Shown: one piece after another, positions 21,036 to 63,654 of the stretch
Position numbering within the stretch: the first letter of the stretch is position 1
How the letters are laid out: each line of letters starts with the position of its first letter
Source of the DNA: Clostridia bacterium
GTDB lineage: Bacteria > Bacillota > Clostridia > UBA1381 > UMGS1253
DNA length: 64,000 nucleotides
Assembly: GCA_045537695.1 (NCBI GenBank)
Contig: JAZSQB010000069.1
Location: forward strand, 4,730 to 68,729
Direction of reading: 5' to 3'
The notes under the pieces: generated by a model
Seen by the model: the letters and a program-made list of their open reading frames with translations, nothing else
Databases searched by the model: none
What the model was told of the DNA's origin: nothing
Translations under genes and position numbers: made by a program

Positions 21036-21110
21036 GCGGGAGTGGCTCAGTGGTAGAGCGTCACCTTGCCAAGGTGAACGTCGCGAGTTCGAATCTCGTC
21101 TTCCGCTCCA
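21036..21110 (+). tRNA. tRNA-Gly (anticodon GCC), CCA encoded
   Basis: GCGGGAG..CTCCCGC-type acceptor stem. Anticodon arm TCACC-TTGCCAA-GGTGA. T-arm GGTTCGAATC-like GAGTTCGAATCTC. 75 nt ending in CCA. Confidence 0.95.
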
Positions 21111-44089: not shown

Positions 44090-44311
44090 ACCAAATTAAA
44101 TATGCCCTGCGGTGTACGTATGTGTACCATTTATTTTACCAACACTTTTAATATGGGATTCTTTGCTCTATGTGCGGATTGCAGGCCTCCCTAAATGGAA
44201 GAGGAAGCGCGAAACACAAGGCGGTTGCCCACCTGCATTTGCAGGTCAAATAAAGGTACAAAACTACGGCATAGCGGGGTTTTTTCATTGAATCAAAATT
44301 GAGGGATGCTT

Positions 44312-54093: not shown

Positions 54094-57000
54094 TTACAGT
54101 ACTTCCGGTGCCGCTAATATACGCATGGTGAAGAAAGATTCTAACAGCATCACCTGTGCCTCATCAAATTCCACATTCGGCAAAAGAGATTCTACGCTCT
54201 CTTCTCCATTATACGATGTAATTTCCACGCCACACTGTGCCCCATCTTTATACAGAACGACGATCAGATAGCCGCTCTTCGCCGCACCGCCTGTAACATT
54301 GGTTGTAAACTTCCAGTTCTCGCCTGCTACTGCATACACCGTCTCCGTTGAAGTCTGCACATTTGGACTCACATATCTATAGCCGATTGCCTCCAGCTCA
54401 TTGATGGAGTATCTTTCCGTATAGCCATCTGTACTGCGTACGCACATACAAATGGCATTGACCGGTTCCGGACAGTCAATTTTAAGCTCATTTACACGCA
54501 CGCCACCCCGCAGTGTACCTTCCTCCAGATTTGCCATTGTGCCGAGTTCAATCCACTCTCCTGCTGCATTTTTGCCCGTAAAGGTTGCTGTTTCCATAAC
54601 CGAGCCAGCTGCATCTCTTTTATCGTAAAGCTTAAAGCTCTCGATAATAGTCAACGCACCAAGTTCCAATGTATAGGTAACATCCGTCAGTGTCCTGCTT
54701 TGGGTTGCACAATATGTGCTTGCACTGCCGTCCGTCATCTCCAGCGCTGGATGGTCTCTATGCAACGCTGTGTTCACAGTCGGGATAACGCCGCCAAGCA
54801 CATTATCTCTTGCAAATTCCGTTGTATTCTCTATGTAGTTGAAGGTATACGTCTTGCCATCGAGTGTAAAGCTGGATGCATCTGCGGTCTTGGTTACCGT
54901 CGCGGCGTCGCTTACGCTTACCTTCGGCTTTGCATTGTTGTACGGAATATAGTAGGTATCTCTGTCTGTTGTAAACGCGGCAAAGTCCTTACCGTCGATA
55001 TACACGCGCGTTTTAAGTTCCTTGGCAATGGCTGCATTGGTTGCTGCGCCGTAATTTACCGCTGTGTCAGAAAATACAATCAAACCGTTTTCCGTATCTG
55101 TATATAGCTGCATACCGAGCGCAGCTGCCAGTTTGTCTGCCGGTGCATATACCACACCGTTTATGGTGGTTAAACCGGACGTTACTGTATTGGTCGCGCC
55201 GTTTCTTGTTACGCTGACGCTACTTTCCGATACTGTAGATTTGGCAAAAATGCTATCTGCCACGAATTTTGCCGGCACCATATACTTACCGCTTTGCAAT
55301 ACCGGTACAATATTTGTATTTGAAGCATCAATGAGCTTCTTTTCTTCCAAAACGAGGGCATTCGGACTATTTTCCATCAGCGCGATAGCATAACCTGCCT
55401 GACGCGCTACGCTGATGGTATTATCCGAAACGCTCCACTCGCCAATCGGTTTTACCTCGCTAAACTGTGTCGGTACGGTTTCGCCCTTCTCAATCGGGAT
55501 AAACTCAACCGCCAGTGTCATTTCGCTCACGTTCGTCATATGAATTGCAAGCTTACGGAAGTTTCTGTAAGTTTCATCCGGCGCAGTAGGACTGGTAGAA
55601 AGTGGAAGCGCATCCATCACGGTAAATACCGCATCCTCCGGACCTGCAATAATTTTTACAAACATTTTTTCGCCGCCGACATTCAAAAGTGCGCCCTTGC
55701 CGTTCTCCACAAGAGATATAACAGCATCGGTATGGGCAAACCACCAAAGCTCGGACGGGAAGTTCATCGTTACCTCATCCTGCAAAATTACGCTGTTTCT
55801 GCCCTTTGTCATAAACATACCGCGCTTTGCGTCTGCAAAGTCTGCGTTGGTTTGCGTCATATCCAGTACGGTATACGCTTCATTTTCCGCTTCGCCGTGA
55901 TCAATAAAACGCGCTACTGCAGTCGTTACCTGGTCAAAGCCTTCACCCGGATTGGCAATCAGCGTATTCTGGCCTTCGGCACGTTCGTTATAATACATAT
56001 ATGTCGGATAATTTGCCGAATAGTTACTTCTGCCGATGGTGCGGATAAAACGCTTACCATTAGCATCAATTACAAATGTACCTAATGACTTAAACATATG
56101 TCCCGTTGCATTGTCACCGCCCTGCATTGCGGCATAAAGTGCATCGTTTGCCGTCCAAGAAGAACGCATGGATGCAATCTGCGCTGTATCAGATGCATTA
56201 AAGGTTTTATCGAGAGGCATACCGCTGTTATAGCTTTCAAAGCTCGGGTTATACCACGGAATTGAAAAATATGGCCTATCAGCATCTGTGCTTGTTTTTG
56301 CTAAAATATGCTTCGCATACCAGCTGTGGAACGGTGTGTTGTTTTTCTGTGCATGCCAAAAAATTACCGATGTTGCATCCAAATCCGACGACGAATCACC
56401 AAAGTCAAATTTTCCCGTCGTACCAGAGCCGTATGCCCAGTAATCCAGCGTGTTTTTCAAAGCCTCATTGTCAAAATACCACTGCGCAGCATCCGGAAGT
56501 GTATATCCCTCTACCACCGCAGACTGCATACTGCTCAGGAACGGCGTAATCGTACGCATTGGATAAGACCAGTACGACACACCCTCCGGGTACGCACCGT
56601 CAGTGGCATACGCATTGGTCGGTTCCTGCATACATTCTAATGCACGATCAATCAAATACTGTGCAAGCTGCGGATACTCATCCGCAACCGCAAGTGCAAG
56701 CAATCCCGCTGCCGAATTGGCTACGGTTGTTCTGTTGGATTTGCCATTTGCAATTTCCACGTTGATCACACCGTCATACGAACGTACAAACTGCCAGAGT
56801 GCCTGCTTCTTTATAATATCCATCAATTCTGTTTTGATTTCAGCCGTCATGGTCGGCGAATTATAGCACCAGTCGTAGAAGCACGCAAAACCAAGCATAA
56901 TTTCAGAAGGAATAATCGGCACATTGTTCGACCAGTCCGGGAAGGTGCTTGCGTTGCGCAATTCTTCAATACCACGCTCTACATATTTTTCATCCTGCTC

Positions 57001-58605
57001 CACAAGATACGCAAAACCGAGCTGCTCTAAACGTTCACCAATGCCGCGCGCAACATCCAAAATGTTTCTGCCGTTGCCGTAATTGTACGTATACAGATCG
57101 GCTGTCAGTGCCTTGTCTGCCGCAGCTTTTAAGCTTGTATACCACGCCTGGCTCTGCGGGTCACTGTTAATTTGTTCTACCAGTGCTGCGCGATCGTTAA
57201 TCATCAAACGCGGATGCTGACGAAGCTTGTTAACTAAGCTATTATCCGTAGGCACGGTATCCGTTGCAACGAGCGACCAGGTAGTACCGGTGATGCCGTA
57301 GTATTTTACGTTTGTAAGCTTCGGCTCTGCATCCTGATACATCACAAAGTTATCCAAAAGAATCGTATCTGACGTTAAAAGCTTACCGTATACATACACC
57401 GAGACTTCGTATGTATCTTCCGGCATAGCCGCTTTAAAGGCTAAATCGCTCACGGCCAGTGTATCGTTTACATAAACATTTAATCGCTGATTCTGAATAT
57501 CAAAGGTTGCTTTAATTTTATTCCAGCTGTCCGCTACGGCACCCTGTGATGTCTCCGAAACGACCGCATCCTCAGAGGTCACCAAAATATTGTTGTCTTT
57601 ATCACGAAGCTCTACATACATTGCAGAGTCAGAAAGCACGGCATAATACTCCGTTGTAAGCTCCTGCACTTCCGTACCGACCGCTAATTTCTTTTGCAGA
57701 TAAGGCGTCTGCGTAATTTTCGTATTATTGGTCATACGGATGATTTTACCGTTATTGCTTGTATCCGCATTCAAAACGGCCTGCGACGCACCGCTGTCTC
57801 TCGTCCAAAGCGCATCTGTACCGCTGCCAATACCATTGCTTGCGTTGAGCGTACAGTCGTAGGTAAACATAAGGTACTTGCCGGTCGGCACGCTCGTTGC
57901 CGGCGCATGCGGGTACGACAAATACGGCTCCATAATCTCTTCCTGTGTGCGGAATGCAATGTTAATATTGTTACATTCTTCAACGTCGACCGGGCTTGTC
58001 GTTGTTACACGTACATCATCTAAATATGCCGCTTTGCCTGCTTCCTGCGAGGAAGCAAAACGCAATTGCAATGTAGAAATATTATTATACCCAATATCGC
58101 CCTCGGCATTTTTCACTTCATTTACATAGGTCACGTATTTTTTCGTCGCAAAATTAAGTTCAACCTTACAATCTGCCCATGTCCCTTCACTGCTTTGGTT
58201 CAAAAACAACTGATTGTTGACGTCCGCAAAACGAAGATATAAGCCCACATTTGCACTCTGCGTCTTTATCTTATAGCTCACTGTCATATTTGTCATGGTT
58301 TCATCAAAATAGAACGTCTTGAGCAGACGCGGAGTGCCAGAAGTGGTCGACGTATTGGAAAAATACGCAACTCTCCCCTGCGCCGTATCCTCCGCAATTT
58401 TGATTGTCGAGGTCCTCGACTCTGTACGTTCGGTCCACATGTTCACCGTGTTTGCCTTCGTCGGGATATTGTCACCTATAGCATCATTCTCAAAATTACT
58501 TTCAAACAGCACAGTCTCTGTTTCTGCTGCCTGCACGCCTATGCCGGCAAACCCAAACGGGCATGCAATACACAAGCACAAAAGCAATGCTAACATTTTT
58601 TTCAT
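54094..58605 (-). CDS. secreted multidomain heparinase II/III-family protein (polysaccharide lyase-like) with jelly-roll, stalk and discoidin-like modules
   Basis: Signal peptide MKKMLALLLCLCIACPFGFAG.. and two N-terminal about 190-aa beta-sandwich modules. Heparinase II/III-like core (..RQHPRLMI.., DGAYPEGVSYWSY, GHMFKSLGTFVIDANGKRF). Copper-amine-oxidase-N-like segment. F5/8-type-C-like segment ending ..INELEAIGY. Confidence 0.75.
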   Translation of the reverse strand: MKKMLALLLCLCIACPFGFAGIGVQAAETETVLFESNFENDAIGDNIPTKANTVNMWTERTESRTSTIKIAEDTAQGRVAYFSNTSTTSGTPRLLKTFYFDETMTNMTVSYKIKTQSANVGLYLRFADVNNQLFLNQSSEGTWADCKVELNFATKKYVTYVNEVKNAEGDIGYNNISTLQLRFASSQEAGKAAYLDDVRVTTTSPVDVEECNNINIAFRTQEEIMEPYLSYPHAPATSVPTGKYLMFTYDCTLNASNGIGSGTDALWTRDSGASQAVLNADTSNNGKIIRMTNNTKITQTPYLQKKLAVGTEVQELTTEYYAVLSDSAMYVELRDKDNNILVTSEDAVVSETSQGAVADSWNKIKATFDIQNQRLNVYVNDTLAVSDLAFKAAMPEDTYEVSVYVYGKLLTSDTILLDNFVMYQDAEPKLTNVKYYGITGTTWSLVATDTVPTDNSLVNKLRQHPRLMINDRAALVEQINSDPQSQAWYTSLKAAADKALTADLYTYNYGNGRNILDVARGIGERLEQLGFAYLVEQDEKYVERGIEELRNASTFPDWSNNVPIIPSEIMLGFACFYDWCYNSPTMTAEIKTELMDIIKKQALWQFVRSYDGVINVEIANGKSNRTTVANSAAGLLALAVADEYPQLAQYLIDRALECMQEPTNAYATDGAYPEGVSYWSYPMRTITPFLSSMQSAVVEGYTLPDAAQWYFDNEALKNTLDYWAYGSGTTGKFDFGDSSSDLDATSVIFWHAQKNNTPFHSWYAKHILAKTSTDADRPYFSIPWYNPSFESYNSGMPLDKTFNASDTAQIASMRSSWTANDALYAAMQGGDNATGHMFKSLGTFVIDANGKRFIRTIGRSNYSANYPTYMYYNERAEGQNTLIANPGEGFDQVTTAVARFIDHGEAENEAYTVLDMTQTNADFADAKRGMFMTKGRNSVILQDEVTMNFPSELWWFAHTDAVISLVENGKGALLNVGGEKMFVKIIAGPEDAVFTVMDALPLSTSPTAPDETYRNFRKLAIHMTNVSEMTLAVEFIPIEKGETVPTQFSEVKPIGEWSVSDNTISVARQAGYAIALMENSPNALVLEEKKLIDASNTNIVPVLQSGKYMVPAKFVADSIFAKSTVSESSVSVTRNGATNTVTSGLTTINGVVYAPADKLAAALGMQLYTDTENGLIVFSDTAVNYGAATNAAIAKELKTRVYIDGKDFAAFTTDRDTYYIPYNNAKPKVSVSDAATVTKTADASSFTLDGKTYTFNYIENTTEFARDNVLGGVIPTVNTALHRDHPALEMTDGSASTYCATQSRTLTDVTYTLELGALTIIESFKLYDKRDAAGSVMETATFTGKNAAGEWIELGTMANLEEGTLRGGVRVNELKIDCPEPVNAICMCVRSTDGYTERYSINELEAIGYRYVSPNVQTSTETVYAVAGENWKFTTNVTGGAAKSGYLIVVLYKDGAQCGVEITSYNGEESVESLLPNVEFDEAQVMLLESFFTMRILAAPEVL

Positions 58606-58717: not shown

Positions 58718-58747
58718 ACAAAAAAGGACGGATTTTTTAACCGTCCT
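58718..58747 (-). terminator. rho-independent terminator ending the T-box operon
   Basis: AGGACGG (58725-58731) pairs with CCGTCCT (58741-58747). TTTTTTGTT follows on the minus strand. Confidence 0.85.
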
Positions 58748-58764
58748 ATATCTTATTTATTAAA

Positions 58765-61224
58765 TTATTTCTTCAAACCAAGCATCTCTACGCTTTCATC
58801 GCGCATCTTGTACTTCAAAATCTTACCTGCCGCATTCATCGGGAATTCCTTGACAAACACGAAGTAGCGCGGCACCTTATGGCGCGCAATAGATGCGTTG
58901 CCGTATTCGCGCATTTCGTTTTCGTCCGCTTCCTCGCCTTTATGCAGAATAATCCACGCGCAGCACTCTTCGCCGTAGCGCTCATCCGGCACGCCGACCA
59001 CCTGCACATCCCTTACCTTCGGATGCGTTAGATAAAACTCCTCAATTTCTCTCGGGTAGAGGTTTTCGTCATCGCGGATAATCATATCCTTGAGACGACC
59101 GGTTACCTTATAGTAGCCGTCCGGCGTGCGACAGCAGATATCGCCCGAATGGAGCCAACCGTCCGCATCAATCGTCTGCGCCGTTGCTTCCGGCATTTTG
59201 TAGTAGCCCTTCATAATGTTAAAGCCGCGTGCAACAAATTCGCCGCTCTCGCCATCCGGCAGTTCTTCCCCTGTTTCCGGGTCAATGACCTTACATTCCA
59301 CGCCTGGAAACGGCGAACCCACCGTTTCTACACGGTGGTCAATATCTTCATTGACTTCGCCCATCGTGCAGCCCGGCGAAGCCTCAGTCTGCCCGTATAC
59401 AGAGATAATCTCACGCATATTCATTTCATCTGCCGCACGGCGCATCAAATCCGCAGGACAGTTTGCGCCTGCCATAATACCCGTACGCATATATGAAAAG
59501 TCCGTCTTTGCAAAATCCGCGTGGTTAAACATCGCAATAAACATCGTCGGTACGCCGTTAAAGCACGTAATGTGCTCATCGTTAACGCACGCGAGCGACG
59601 ATTTCGGCGAGAAATACGGCATCGGGCACAGTGTGCCGCCGTGCGTCATCGTCGAGGTCATGGAAAGCACCATACCGAAGCAATGAAACATCGGCACCTG
59701 AATCATCATACGATCCGCCGTGGATAAATCCATACGGTCGCCAATGGTTTTACCGTTGTTGACAATATTTCTGTGCGTCAGCATAACGCCTTTCGGAAAA
59801 CCGGTTGTACCGGAGGTATACTGCATGTTGCACACATCATCCGGCTTTACGAGGGATGCGCGGCGGCGCACTTCTTCCTGTGGAACAAAATTGCTTCGCT
59901 CCAGCATTTTTTCCCAGGTAAGACAGCCGTCCATCTCAAACCCAACCGTTACGACATTGCGCAAGAACGGCAGATTCTTCGAATACAGCGGCTCACCCGG
60001 CTTGAGGCTTTTCAGCTCCGGACAAAGCTCTTCAATAATTTCTTTATAGTTGATATCCTTGCAATCCTCAATCATCACAAGCGTATGCGTATCCGACTGC
60101 TTTAAAAGATACTCAATTTCGTGAATTTTGTAAGCGGTATTCACCGTAACCAGCACCGCACCGATTTTTGTGGTTGCCCAAAAGGTAATAAACCACGCCG
60201 GCACGTTGGTTGCCCAGATGGCAACATGGTCGCCCGCCTTTACGCCGAGCGAAATCAGCGCCGCTGCACACTCATCCACATCGCGGCGGAACTGCGCATA
60301 GGTACGTGTATAATCCAGGGTCGTATATTTAAATGCATACTGGTCCGGATACTTTTCCACCATTTTATCGAGCACATCCGAAAAAGTTGCCTCAATGACA
60401 TCGTACTTTTTCCAGACAAAGGTGCCCGTCTTATCGCGATTATAATAGGTGCGGTCGTATTCCTTCTTCGTGCGCGACAGATTTGCAATGTAGTTTGCAA
60501 AATGCGTCAGCACAATATCCGCATCCTGAATTTCTTCATTCCATGCCACGCAGATATAGCCATCGAAATTGAGCGAAGACAGCGCGTTGATTACGTTGGT
60601 CACCGGCAATTCACCCTCGCCAATGAGCACCTTTTTGCCGTCCTTCATATCGCCAAGGCGCACATATTTAATGTATGCACCCAAGGTCTTGATGGTTGTA
60701 TCCGCACTTTCACCGGCGTTAAAATACGTTTCTCTCGTATTCCAGGCTACGCCGATGGCTGCCGAAGAAAAGAAATTGATTAAATCAATCACGTTCTCCG
60801 TTTCCGCAAGATAGCCTGCCGTTTCAAATAAAATCTGCACATCCGCAGCTTCCGCACGACGAATTGCCGCCATCAGCTTCGAGGCGAGCACTGCCGTGTC
60901 CGTTTTTTCCATAATGCGCACAATCACGCGCTCCACGCCGGCATTTCTTGCCATATCCACATATTTTACAAGCGCTTCTTCCGTCGCCTGCTCACTCTCT
61001 ACGGCATACGGATAGCGCAGTGCGGAAACCGCCAAGCCGCGGTTAAATAGCTTGCGCTTTGCGTCCGCATTGCGGTCACTTCTTAAAATACTATCGTAAT
61101 GCTGTTTTCTCTCTGCAACTGCATCATAGATTTCAAAACCGGCATAGCCATAGTCATAGGCGTAACGGCACGTATCCAGAAAGGAAGGTCTGTTTACGTT
61201 TTTCGTTGAAAATATCAGCTTCAT
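58765..61224 (-). CDS. fusion protein: xylose-isomerase-like TIM barrel (sugar phosphate isomerase/epimerase family) + AMP-forming acyl-CoA synthetase
   Basis: aa 1 to about 245 are TIM-barrel-like (..GFEIYD.., ..ILFETAG.., ..YVRLGD..). aa about 265-819 are the adenylate-forming enzyme (YTSGTTGFPKGVMLTHRN, VYGQTEASP, SGDICCRTPDGYYKVTGRLKD). Confidence 0.8.
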   Translation of the reverse strand: MKLIFSTKNVNRPSFLDTCRYAYDYGYAGFEIYDAVAERKQHYDSILRSDRNADAKRKLFNRGLAVSALRYPYAVESEQATEEALVKYVDMARNAGVERVIVRIMEKTDTAVLASKLMAAIRRAEAADVQILFETAGYLAETENVIDLINFFSSAAIGVAWNTRETYFNAGESADTTIKTLGAYIKYVRLGDMKDGKKVLIGEGELPVTNVINALSSLNFDGYICVAWNEEIQDADIVLTHFANYIANLSRTKKEYDRTYYNRDKTGTFVWKKYDVIEATFSDVLDKMVEKYPDQYAFKYTTLDYTRTYAQFRRDVDECAAALISLGVKAGDHVAIWATNVPAWFITFWATTKIGAVLVTVNTAYKIHEIEYLLKQSDTHTLVMIEDCKDINYKEIIEELCPELKSLKPGEPLYSKNLPFLRNVVTVGFEMDGCLTWEKMLERSNFVPQEEVRRRASLVKPDDVCNMQYTSGTTGFPKGVMLTHRNIVNNGKTIGDRMDLSTADRMMIQVPMFHCFGMVLSMTSTMTHGGTLCPMPYFSPKSSLACVNDEHITCFNGVPTMFIAMFNHADFAKTDFSYMRTGIMAGANCPADLMRRAADEMNMREIISVYGQTEASPGCTMGEVNEDIDHRVETVGSPFPGVECKVIDPETGEELPDGESGEFVARGFNIMKGYYKMPEATAQTIDADGWLHSGDICCRTPDGYYKVTGRLKDMIIRDDENLYPREIEEFYLTHPKVRDVQVVGVPDERYGEECCAWIILHKGEEADENEMREYGNASIARHKVPRYFVFVKEFPMNAAGKILKYKMRDESVEMLGLKK

Positions 61225-61226
61225 CC

Positions 61227-62615
61227 TTACGCCTCCTCAAATACAATCTTGTTGAGCGCATTGATATAGGCTCTGATACTGGCAGCCACGATGTCTGTCG
61301 AGCTACCGTTGCCGGAATAAAGCTTGCCACCCACGCGCAGCTTCACAAGCGCAGAACCGAGCGCCTCTTTACCGTCGGTCACGGACTGAATCTGGAAATC
61401 ATCCAGCTCATAGTGATAGCCGATGCTCTGCTCAATCGCACGGAATACCGAGTCAATCGGACCGTCCCCCGTGCTGACACCACACAGAATTTCATCGCCG
61501 CAACGCAATGTCACCTGCGACATCGCCGTGGTTAAATTGCCGCAGCTGGTCGAATAGCTCTCAAAATGATAGGTCGACGGTGCCTGCATCGCTGTACTTG
61601 CAATCAAGGCTTCAAACTCTTTTGCGCCCACGGTGCCCTTCTTTTCGCAAACCTGCATCAGGGCTTTATGCACCTTGCCGTTATCTTCATCGGACAAATC
61701 ATAACCGAGCACACCGGCAGCATGTGCCACATCGGAAAGTGTGCTGTCCTCATCGAGTAAAATCTTCTTCTTTTCGCTGACAACACTCACGCTGTCATAG
61801 CCCTCGTGCTGAATTTTTGTAAGCAAATCCGCAATACTTGCGTGGATTTTTGTATTGACCAAAGATACGCTTGCGCCAACATCTTCCCCGCGCGCAGAAA
61901 CTGCGTTGGAAAGCTCGCCCATCGAGAGCACATCATCGCCAACCATTGCGCACTTAAGACCGTCCGCACCGGCGCCAACTGCCGAAAATGCCGCAGCCAC
62001 TGCCATACCGATGTGCGTGGAAACCTGCACATAAACCGGTACATCCACTTCTTTTTTAAGCGCTTCTACCAGGGTTGCAATTTCCGCCGGCAACGATACG
62101 CCAGCATCATCGCAAACCGTAACCAAGGTCGCACCGTTCTCTACTGCCATTTTTGCTGCCTGCACAAGGAATTCCAAATCTGCACGTGTTGCATCCAATG
62201 CCGCAAATTCCACATCTGCGCAAAGCGCTTTCGCCGCCTGCGTCAGTTCCGCAATTTTGGCAAGCATTTTATCGGACTTAACGTGGTAGGTATACTCCAT
62301 CTGTACCGTCGAGGTCGGCACTTCCACCTGCAGTCTCGGCTTTGCCGCTTCGCGGATGCATTCCCATGCGTTGCTCACTTCTGCCGCCGAAAAACCGACC
62401 GGCAAAGCCAGCACACTGTTTTTCACATTCGCCGCAATCGTTTTATATATAATGGTGTCTTCGCGCACATTCTTAAGCGGTGCAAGCTCAATGGCATCCA
62501 CGCCCAAGCCGTCTGCGCACGCTGCAATCGCCGTTTTTTCGCGAAACAAAAGCGAAACCTCGCGATCCTGCGCCAGCTTTTTTAATGTGATATCGGTTAC
62601 ATTGATTTTTTTCAT
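61227..62615 (-). CDS. LeuA-like protein (HMGL-like barrel with degenerate catalytic motifs + LeuA allosteric/dimerisation domain)
   Basis: Starts MKKINVTDITLKKLAQD (canonical DTTLRDGEQ lost). STH replaces the HxH metal site. C-terminal ..GDGPIDSVFRAIEQ..LVKLRVGGKLYSGNGSSTDIVAASIRAYINALN is the LeuA_dimer type. The upstream 80 codons of the track ORF overlap the T-box and are rejected. Confidence 0.75.
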   Translation of the reverse strand: MKKINVTDITLKKLAQDREVSLLFREKTAIAACADGLGVDAIELAPLKNVREDTIIYKTIAANVKNSVLALPVGFSAAEVSNAWECIREAAKPRLQVEVPTSTVQMEYTYHVKSDKMLAKIAELTQAAKALCADVEFAALDATRADLEFLVQAAKMAVENGATLVTVCDDAGVSLPAEIATLVEALKKEVDVPVYVQVSTHIGMAVAAAFSAVGAGADGLKCAMVGDDVLSMGELSNAVSARGEDVGASVSLVNTKIHASIADLLTKIQHEGYDSVSVVSEKKKILLDEDSTLSDVAHAAGVLGYDLSDEDNGKVHKALMQVCEKKGTVGAKEFEALIASTAMQAPSTYHFESYSTSCGNLTTAMSQVTLRCGDEILCGVSTGDGPIDSVFRAIEQSIGYHYELDDFQIQSVTDGKEALGSALVKLRVGGKLYSGNGSSTDIVAASIRAYINALNKIVFEEA

Positions 62616-62644
62616 TTCAAAAAATCCCCTTCCTTGAGACTGTT

Positions 62645-62912
62645 GCAAAAAAAATGCCTTCGTCTCTTTGATTTTTGAAAGAGACGAAAGCGTCAAATTC
62701 TCACTTAACCTTCCGCGGTACCACTCTTCTTCATCCAACGGATGCCCTTTCGATGCAAACACATCTTGACTCTGTAACGGGAGTGCCCGTCTGCCCTTAC
62801 GCACCATAGGTTTCACGGCAGCTGCTCCGCGGTGAGTTCTGCAAATCTTTCCCAATGCCTCGCAGCAACCGGCATCTCTCTCCAGGCGAAAGGATTCTGC
62901 GTACTATTCCGC
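62645..62912 (-). promoter_or_regulatory. T-box riboswitch leader, specifier CUC (Leu)
   Basis: On the minus strand: AGAGAG box, then the specifier loop GAA-CUC-A (codon at 62836-62834). T-box sequence GUGGUACCGCG (complement of 62713-62725), with UGGU bulge matching an ACCA tRNA end. Terminator CUUUCGUCUCUUU..AAAGAGACGAAGG plus U8 (62645-62692). Confidence 0.85.
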
Positions 62913-62940
62913 ATCAATGCATTTTTATAACATTAGATTT

Positions 62941-62969
62941 AATATAGCATATTTCCCGCACGTTGTCAA
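62941..62969 (-). promoter_or_regulatory. sigma-70-type promoter of the T-box operon
   Basis: Minus strand TTGACA (62969-62964), 17 nt, TATATT (62946-62941). Confidence 0.65.
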
Positions 62970-62976
62970 GCTTTTT

Positions 62977-63654
62977 TTAAATTATCCCGAACAGAACAAA
63001 CCCAATGGTGTTAATCGCAAAATTTGCAAACATATGCACCAACCACGAAGGATAGATTGTGCCGCTCTTCGCATTGAGATAATTAAAGATCAGTCCGCCG
63101 GCAAAAAGACCGATTAGCACAATTGCAAACACCGGCAGCGAAAACCATCCGAGCATCATCGCAACGTGATAAAGTGCAAACACGACGGCACTGAAAATGT
63201 AGGCAAAGCGCTGCCCCGTCAGCTTCTGCAGATTCAAAAATGCAAAGCCGCGGAAGAAAAACTCCTCTAACAGCGAGTTGACAAACGAGATATACAGCGA
63301 TACATAAATAAAGTTCTTGCCATGCACGCCGATGTTCTGTGTCAGGCTCTTGGTGATGTTTGAAAAATCAAACACGCCTCTGAGCAAAAAATAGCCGCCC
63401 AGAATCACTGCAAAAACGCCAAGCCCTAGCCCAAGTGCCGGCAAAATGCTTTTTCTGTCTATCCGAAACAATGGCAAGACACTAAGCGAAGCATCTATAC
63501 GTGCATACAGCGCCGGAACGCCTAAAAACAGCACGAGCTTGATGGCGGATTTAGCAAAGTAATTCACCTGCAGCACACCGTCCACCACTGCCATCACGGC
63601 GCAAAACAGCACAACGAGTGCGCACAGTAAATATATGCGTTTTTTGTTTTGCAT
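62977..63654 (-). CDS. CPBP family intramembrane glutamic endopeptidase (CAAX/Abi type)
   Basis: EEFFFRGF motif 1, FALYH motif 2, LVHMFAN motif 3. Polytopic. Confidence 0.85.
   Translation of the reverse strand: MQNKKRIYLLCALVVLFCAVMAVVDGVLQVNYFAKSAIKLVLFLGVPALYARIDASLSVLPLFRIDRKSILPALGLGLGVFAVILGGYFLLRGVFDFSNITKSLTQNIGVHGKNFIYVSLYISFVNSLLEEFFFRGFAFLNLQKLTGQRFAYIFSAVVFALYHVAMMLGWFSLPVFAIVLIGLFAGGLIFNYLNAKSGTIYPSWLVHMFANFAINTIGFVLFGII

Follow-up and report, generated by a model that had tools for sequence, protein, structure and literature searches.

A leucine T-box precedes a LeuA-like pseudoenzyme and a barrel-fused acyl-CoA synthetase: a candidate cassette for leucine salvage from isovalerate in gut Clostridia

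What does a leucine-responsive riboswitch control when the genes behind it encode no recognisable enzyme of leucine biosynthesis? The question is raised by a two-gene operon in a 64,000-nt stretch of DNA from a Clostridia bacterium (GenBank assembly GCA_045537695.1, contig JAZSQB010000069.1, positions 4,730 to 68,729 of the forward strand), the whole of which is called the window here and to which all positions refer. Gene 1 of the operon encodes a LeuA-like protein, gene 2 encodes a TIM barrel fused to an acyl-CoA synthetase (ACS), and both lie behind a T-box leader with a leucine specifier codon. Their public names are "hypothetical protein" and "AMP-binding protein". The sequence evidence suggests that this cassette is an amino-acid salvage operon under T-box control with an unusual pseudoenzyme architecture. 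We lean, if only a little beyond an even chance, towards a combined model in which leucine starvation induces the two genes, the cassette starts the salvage of isovalerate to leucine and gene 1 acts as a sensor. Taken separately, the salvage role of the cassette is probable, while leucine sensing by gene 1 is a tentative assignment with a chance somewhat short of even.

A scan of the whole window with Rfam models found a single T-box. It matched RF00230 with 118.9 bits (E = 1e-25) against a gathering score of 93 bits and covered model positions 1-219 of 219, which makes the leader complete. The sequence-only reading of this locus had proposed such a leader with the specifier GAA-CUC-A, and the covariance-model alignment indeed places CUC at the specifier position. 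The same alignment contains the other elements of Stem I, namely the K-turn UGA/GA, AAUAGUA, the AGAGA bulge and the distal loop GGUUGCUG. The U of UGGU pairs with discriminator A73 tRNAs, for example tRNA-Leu. The 5' arm of the leader terminator, UUCGUCUCUUU, doubles as the 3' arm of the antiterminator, and terminator and antiterminator are therefore mutually exclusive. Among 19 orthologous leaders, an alignment that includes two divergent T-boxes, compensatory changes occur at 21 of the 60 predicted consensus pairs. As a riboswitch, the leader is nothing unusual within its known family; it is the genes under its control that are unusual.

The boundaries of the operon agree with this arrangement (Table 1). 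The T-box starts 15 nt downstream of the promoter, which in turn lies 8 nt past the end of the CPBP protease gene further upstream (62977-63654). Since the promoter scan overall gave 4 sites against 5.9 expected in shuffled sequences, and thus no enrichment, the operon promoter was accepted on its position and not on statistics. A hairpin followed by T6 ends the operon; our terminator scanner passed over it, having a loop limit of 8 nt against a loop of 9 nt. The promoter, the leader terminator, the close junction of the two genes and, to within a few bases, the downstream terminator had all been anticipated from the letters of the sequence, and each was found again here.

Table 1. Positions of the operon's control elements, genes and domains in the window
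Feature	Position	Strand	Basis or detail
Sigma-70-type promoter TTGACA-17-TATATT, extended TG	62941..62969	-	11/12 positions match
T-box leader: Stem I, Stem II, IIA/B, Stem III, antiterminator	62677..62926	-	RF00230
Specifier codon CUC (Leu), context GAA-CUC-A	62834..62836	-	Covariance-model alignment
T-box sequence AGAGUGGUACCGCG	62714..62727	-	UGGU bulge at 62723-62720
Leader intrinsic terminator: 14-bp stem, 8-nt loop, T8	62647..62691	-	Stem-loop 62691-62656
Gene 1, 462-aa LeuA-like protein: dead DRE-TIM barrel and LeuA allosteric domain	61227..62615	-	Pfam, NCBIfam, alignment to IPMS structures
Gene 2, N-terminal xylose-isomerase-like TIM barrel, degenerate	60475..61224	-	AP_endonuc_2, 53 bits vs 31
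Gene 2, C-terminal ANL acyl-CoA synthetase	58765..60393	-	AMP-binding and AMP-binding_C
Operon-end intrinsic terminator GGACGG-TTAAAAAAT-CCGTCC, then T6	58720..58746	-	Hairpin 58746-58726, T6 58725-58720
Promoter of next gene	58718-58690	-	Directly after operon-end terminator

The coding sequence of gene 1 runs from ATG 62615, which follows GGAAGGGG, to the TAA at 61229-61227. Two longer versions, the 542-aa longest open reading frame (ORF) with a TTG start and the 529-aa public product P0001, intrude into the T-box leader (62616-62855). We take ATG 62615 as the true start because the homologues are all 461-463 aa long, with a start at the equivalent position. The protein carries the two domains of a LeuA, matching the Pfam families HMGL-like (99.8 bits) and LeuA_dimer (PF08502; 102 bits, profile positions 4-130 of 131). 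Its best LeuA equivalog, NF002086, gives 255 bits against a cut-off of 532, and TIGR00973 gives 228 against 599. In the alignment with the 2-isopropylmalate synthase (IPMS) structures of Listeria and Neisseria (3ewb, 3rmj), the DTTLRDGEQ of the enzymes corresponds to DITLKKLAQ in gene 1, and their HxHxDLG to QVSTHIG. The metal ligands are thereby replaced, the Asp of RDGEQ by Lys and the His pair of HxH by Gln and Ser, and the Arg of RDGEQ is changed as well, also to Lys. The loss of the metal-binding Asp and of both His residues, together with the low equivalog score, bears out the earlier description of gene 1 as a degenerate LeuA paralogue. With its catalytic metal ligands lost, the protein is by all sequence indications no IPMS. 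A divergent IPMS or citramalate synthase was considered for gene 1 and ruled out, the metal ligands being absent.

The regulatory domain of gene 1 has fared differently from the barrel. It retains the GDGPID and TDIVAAS motifs and is the best conserved part of the protein, with a mean identity to the window protein of 89% in 28 family members, against 72% for the barrel. The regulatory domain has 74 invariant columns out of 127, the barrel 71 out of 226. Over its whole length, gene 1 is 69-83% identical to the window protein across loci.

Gene 2 follows without delay: after the TAA of gene 1 come GG and the ATG at 61224, and GAGGAGG lies just ahead, within the 3' end of gene 1. The gene encodes 819 aa and ends at 58765. 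Its description as a TIM barrel joined to an acyl-CoA synthetase stands, given the AP_endonuc_2 and AMP-binding domains; what the sequence-only reading had missed is that the barrel is degenerate and that a Gly-Gly pair of the synthetase has become Asp-Asp, a change taken up below. The barrel is modelled by AlphaFold2 (AF2) with a predicted local distance difference test (pLDDT) score of 91.4. Foldseek relates it to ketose 3-epimerases, UlaE and AsbF at template modelling (TM) scores of 0.7-0.78 and 10-18% identity. This fold search placed the superfamily and indicated no specific function, and a sequence search with the barrel against the PDB gave nothing better than E > 0.1. Three motifs have changed, WD..H to WN.RE, HVHxKD to YVRLGD and SLEW to CVAW, the originals being kept in distant homologues. 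Only E134 is left of the canonical Glu-Asp-His-Glu set (Asp is now Asn, His is Arg and Glu is Ala); the distant homologues keep all four ligands.

The synthetase half matches PF00501 (323 bits) and PF13193 (63 bits) and contains the YTSGTTGxPKG and GQTE motifs. Across 80 loci it is 88-97% identical, against 66-86% for the TIM part. Measured against the window protein across L001-L083, this degree of constraint is unusually strong for a metabolic enzyme. The synthetase and the LeuA regulatory domain are thus far more conserved than both dead barrels, which we count in favour of the salvage model. By its domains and residues, the operon encodes a pair of dead barrels together with a synthetase and a leucine-type regulatory domain that both look live.

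Conservation of the cassette as a unit was assessed in relatives. A search for the gene 1 family in a one-genome-per-species collection gave 549 matching stretches, and the best 80 of the 549 were examined. These 80 are all metagenome-assembled genomes of Clostridia from animal guts (Oscillospiraceae, Acutalibacteraceae, Ruminococcus, Ructibacterium, Congzhengia). Linkage was judged in the 81 loci whose contig permits it. The TIM::ACS gene lies directly 3' of gene 1 in all 81, the two being mostly a few bases apart or overlapping. A leucine sensor stands before the cassette throughout, a T-box in 57 loci and a leader peptide in 24. T-boxes like that of the window were found in 55 loci, where the specifier is CUC in 52, CUG in one and CCC in two; a divergent T-box, with CUC as well, occurs in two further loci. 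The codon is invariant in the 19-sequence alignment, both divergent T-boxes included. The 15-nt T-box stretch AGAGUGGUACCGCGG recurs without change in 54 of the 55 orthologues, and the remaining one differs at a base outside UGGU. The two CCC (Pro) leaders, one of which is at L076 1816-2059, are otherwise unaltered.

The remaining 24 loci have no T-box. In its place they have a strong promoter, then a leader ORF of 32-36 codons with a ribosome-binding site and, immediately ahead of gene 1, a GC hairpin and T-run (examples are L002 7790-7990, L010, L023, L029 and L036). The 19 leader ORFs recovered in the correct frame contain 4-6 Leu and 5-8 Ile codons, with cores such as ILLLIAIIIL; one of them reads MNTALFAAYILLINAIILLIGEHSKNSAICRV. 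Such a Leu/Ile-rich ORF followed by a terminator looks like ribosome-mediated attenuation. Within the leader ORF, the stretch AACGCTATTATT is complementary to AAGAATAGCGCT further downstream. An origin of these ORFs as chance or membrane peptides was rejected, as they always lie between promoter and terminator and their Leu content tracks the content of the operon. A homologous leader precedes stand-alone ilvE-vor units, with 12-15 Ile and 0 Leu (L050 5700-6000 on the minus strand, L063 4440-4700, L014 12910-13170); leader Leu content tracks the presence of the LeuA-like/ACS cassette in the operon. Any control element before the cassette reads leucine. T-box and putative attenuator swap places before the same genes, and the amino acids of the leader follow what the operon contains.

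The genes next to the cassette in relatives suggest where its product may go. Downstream genes were counted in the 47 loci with at least 5 kb of sequence 3' of gene 2, 31 of which are of the T-box type. Directly 3' of gene 2, ilvE, a ParA-like gene and vorD/B/A/C were found in 14 of the 47, and within 10 kb in 4 more. The assignments are well above threshold for IlvE (equivalog 504 bits, cut-off 307) and VorB (545 bits, cut-off 399); the beta and gamma subunits and a 67-aa 2x[4Fe-4S] delta subunit are present too. In the 24 leader-peptide loci, ilvE and a complete vorDBAC are usually in the same operon. The gap between gene 2 and ilvE in this clade is 20-45 nt and has neither promoter nor terminator; gene 2, ilvE and vor therefore form a single operon. 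Between ilvE and vorD there is always a 230-aa ParA/NUBPL-like P-loop protein, which overlaps the end of ilvE (L002 12918-13610 and equivalents) and may be an Fe-S maturation factor for VOR.

Two further kinds of unit, which adjoin the cassette in several relatives, have a similar design. An Ile T-box (AUC-A in the covariance-model alignment) precedes an HTH_3-cupin::MbcS-like ligase, followed by an ACT and metallo-beta-lactamase protein (L054 13925-18027; L025 6336-8956; L068 18772-14621 on the minus strand; L078 5404-6447). Behind a Phe T-box (UUC-A) come a PaaK-like phenylacetate-CoA ligase and then a 143-aa ACT-pair protein (L054 7432-9596; L068 7352-9538; L077 18091-20196; the T-box only at L076 9464-9713). 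In L054 and L068 the Phe module immediately precedes the Leu cassette. Common to the Leu, Ile and Phe units is the partnership of a ligase with a protein bearing a small-molecule-binding regulatory domain, and it is mainly for this shared pairing that we read gene 1 as a possible leucine sensor of its ligase. Two other T-boxes, read by eye as Tyr (UAC), stand before a sodium:solute symporter family protein (L083 9548-7693 and L062 15777-13935, both on the minus strand). MbcS, the methylbutyryl-CoA synthetase of Staphylococcus aureus, is ATP-dependent and takes 2-methylbutyrate and isobutyrate but isovalerate poorly (PMC10026030). Isovalerate would therefore be left for a different ligase, the TIM::ACS.

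Taken together, a CoA ligase, a reversible oxidoreductase and a transaminase induced by leucine starvation suggest a route from isovalerate through isovaleryl-CoA and 2-oxoisocaproate to leucine; both the substrate and the direction of flux are what we infer from this combination. When leucine runs short, uncharged tRNA-Leu(GAG) would pair with the CUC specifier and the UGGU bulge. The pairing would stabilise the antiterminator and let the polymerase read through the leader terminator, and two proteins, coupled in translation, would be made from the transcript. The gene 2 ANL synthetase would take a short branched acid, most probably isovalerate, and form isovaleryl-CoA. Reductive carboxylation of this thioester to 2-oxoisocaproate would fall to a VOR-type 2-oxoacid:ferredoxin oxidoreductase, and transamination of the oxo acid to leucine would fall to IlvE. 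The VOR and IlvE genes of this genome would lie outside the window; in many relatives they belong to the same operon. Gene 1 most likely would bind leucine and throttle the synthetase as a feedback subunit, with the two dead TIM barrels serving as scaffold or coupling elements. A broader idea, which we regard as rather speculative, with perhaps one chance in three, is that Oscillospiraceae and relatives possess amino-acid-specific salvage modules for Leu, Ile and Phe, each with its own T-box or attenuator, a ligase and an end-product-binding regulator. The Leu regulator would be a LeuA pseudoenzyme that docks on the dead barrel fused to the ligase.

Several observations weigh against salvage of isovalerate as the function of the cassette. 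The substrate of the synthetase is unreadable from its sequence, the best NCBIfam match being the generic PRK12583, at 670 bits below the cut-off of 832. In 28 of the 31 T-box-type loci, ilvE and vor are not adjacent to the cassette, and in the window neither tblastn with ilvE and vor queries nor a Pfam search of 22 further ORFs found a gene for branched-chain amino acids or a 2-oxoacid:ferredoxin oxidoreductase. The AF2 model of gene 1 has a pLDDT below 50 in the regulatory domain. The window synthetase may be impaired by its Asp-Asp in place of an invariant Gly-Gly. Finally, L084-L089 in other Firmicutes have a homologous synthetase (51-55% identity) and a homologous TIM (25% identity) as separate genes. 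These pairs have no LeuA-like gene or T-box, so that the ACS-TIM pairing is by this comparison older than its leucine link and its ancestral role was not leucine-specific. The neighbours of these distant pairs (an AraC regulator, a rhamnosidase, spore germination genes, a flavin reductase) gave no functional clue. One reading that would accommodate the missing neighbours is a leucine-sparing supply of primers, in which external isovalerate is converted to isovaleryl-CoA to prime iso-branched fatty acids and no leucine is made. Cells short of leucine would then be spared its breakdown for lipid primers. Ligases of the MbcS type supply lipid primers in S. aureus (PMC10026030), the absence of adjacent vor and ilvE in the window and in most T-box-type loci fits, and feedback by leucine would be sensible here as well. 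Nevertheless, 24 or more species co-transcribe the cassette with ilvE and vorDBAC under a Leu/Ile-starvation leader, and a starvation-induced transaminase and 2-oxoacid oxidoreductase are sensible solely in the anabolic direction. The Phe T-box-PaaK module, moreover, has no lipid-primer logic, and we consider primer supply unlikely.

We likewise see little chance for a different chemistry, in which the LeuA-like barrel, the TIM barrel or both would be catalytic by a new metal-independent mechanism and some other leucine-related acid would be activated. On this view the cassette would form leucine, or a derivative of it, by a route not yet recognised. The LeuA-like barrel does have invariant polar residues (D8, K12, R25, E43, R51-D53, E98, E107, H111, D141, R144, D169), and the full catalytic set in the distant TIM partners suggests that the TIM-ACS pair once had a joint chemistry. 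Yet all three DRE-TIM metal ligands and three of the four xylose-isomerase-like ligands are replaced, the residue standing in for the metal-binding Asp is not invariant, and both barrels show faster evolution than either the synthetase or the regulatory domain. Less probable still is that the cassette is decaying in this genome, with the T-box driving a remnant. The case for decay comes from the A8 motif of the synthetase. It reads RDDEN in the window (GAT GAC, 59068-59073, minus strand) and nowhere else, since 45 of 45 full-length orthologues have RGGEN, with varied GGN codons; the window protein hence departs from the intact A8 hinge (..IIRGGENxYPxEIE), and a change from GG to DD would kill the thioester-forming step. 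Both ORFs are intact, however, the leader, ribosome-binding sites and terminators are canonical, and apart from the two Asp residues the gene 2 protein is 93% identical to its nearest relatives. The two adjacent G-to-A differences could equally be an error of the assembly consensus, so that Asp-Asp is either an inactivating change or an assembly error. Salvage of isovalerate to leucine is therefore kept as the preferred interpretation. Proposed in the sequence-only reading, it draws strong comparative support from the occurrence of ilvE and vor in the same operon in many relatives and from the leucine-sensing control, and it loses from the absence of ilvE and vor among the genes found in the window. 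In all, that earlier interpretation appears to be partly supported, and for the larger part, by comparative genomics.

The surroundings of the operon are chromosomal. The next gene, with its own promoter, is a 1503-aa ORF (54094-58605, minus strand) with a signal-peptide-like N-terminus, for which searches of Pfam and NCBIfam gave nothing significant. Pfam scans of the 22 further window ORFs show housekeeping and sporulation genes only, and spoIIIAA/AE, a type III glutamine synthetase, coaX and metK are within the window. From these sporulation and housekeeping genes, the window is taken to be chromosome of spore-forming Clostridia. A tRNA with anticodon GCC (Gly) lies at 21036-21107 (plus strand) and a 6S RNA at 44101-44284 (plus strand, 86 bits).

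Branched-chain volatile fatty acids have been known since the 1960s as growth factors of rumen and gut fibre degraders. In the literature searched, we found no genes for the activation of isovalerate or for the regulation of this step, and no T-box-controlled acyl-CoA ligase, gene 1 LeuA-like family or bacterial isovalerate-CoA ligase; the T-box regulon surveys searched did not mention acyl-CoA ligases. The cassette thus offers concrete gene candidates for a 60-year-old pathway, and gene 1 would be a clear example of an enzyme paralogue put to new use as a putative end-product sensor. If the broader idea of amino-acid-specific modules is true, with its LeuA pseudoenzyme docked on the ligase, the cassette would represent a novel type of acyl-CoA synthetase under allosteric control and would fill the gene gap in Allison's isovalerate-carboxylation pathway.

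Each part of the cassette can be set beside a known system. The leader belongs to the same RNA family (RF00230) as the Leu T-boxes of leuS and of the ilv-leu operon in Bacillota and has the same CUC specifier, UGGU bulge and terminator/antiterminator switch. The regulated genes here are, in contrast, a pseudo-LeuA and a CoA ligase; tRNA synthetases, biosynthetic enzymes and transporters are not among them. Gene 1 shares with LeuA the two-domain layout and a full-profile LeuA_dimer, but it is without the metal-binding Asp and HxH pair and scores under half of the equivalog cut-offs. HisZ, a dead histidyl-tRNA synthetase paralogue, is the histidine-sensing allosteric subunit of HisG (ATP phosphoribosyltransferase). 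It may be the closest functional analogy for gene 1; the parallel, a catalysis-dead paralogue as putative end-product sensor, is one of analogy alone, with no sequence relationship. The unfused ACS and TIM pairs of L084-L089 differ from gene 2 in their opposite order and canonical TIM motifs, as well as in standing without the LeuA-like gene and the T-box. With MbcS, gene 2 shares the theme of a ligase for external short branched acids, and an MbcS-like gene adjoins the cassette in relatives; gene 2 nevertheless falls in a different ANL subfamily, being 25% identical to the MbcS-like neighbour, and has the N-terminal TIM barrel. The closest match in physiology is the carboxylation of isovalerate to leucine in ruminococci, for which labelling work is credited (Allison 1962 and 1966, as cited in PMC7356843). 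That pathway is defined by labelling; the proposed steps, from acid to acyl-CoA to 2-oxo acid to amino acid, would be the same, and so is the group of organisms (Ruminococcus, Oscillospiraceae).

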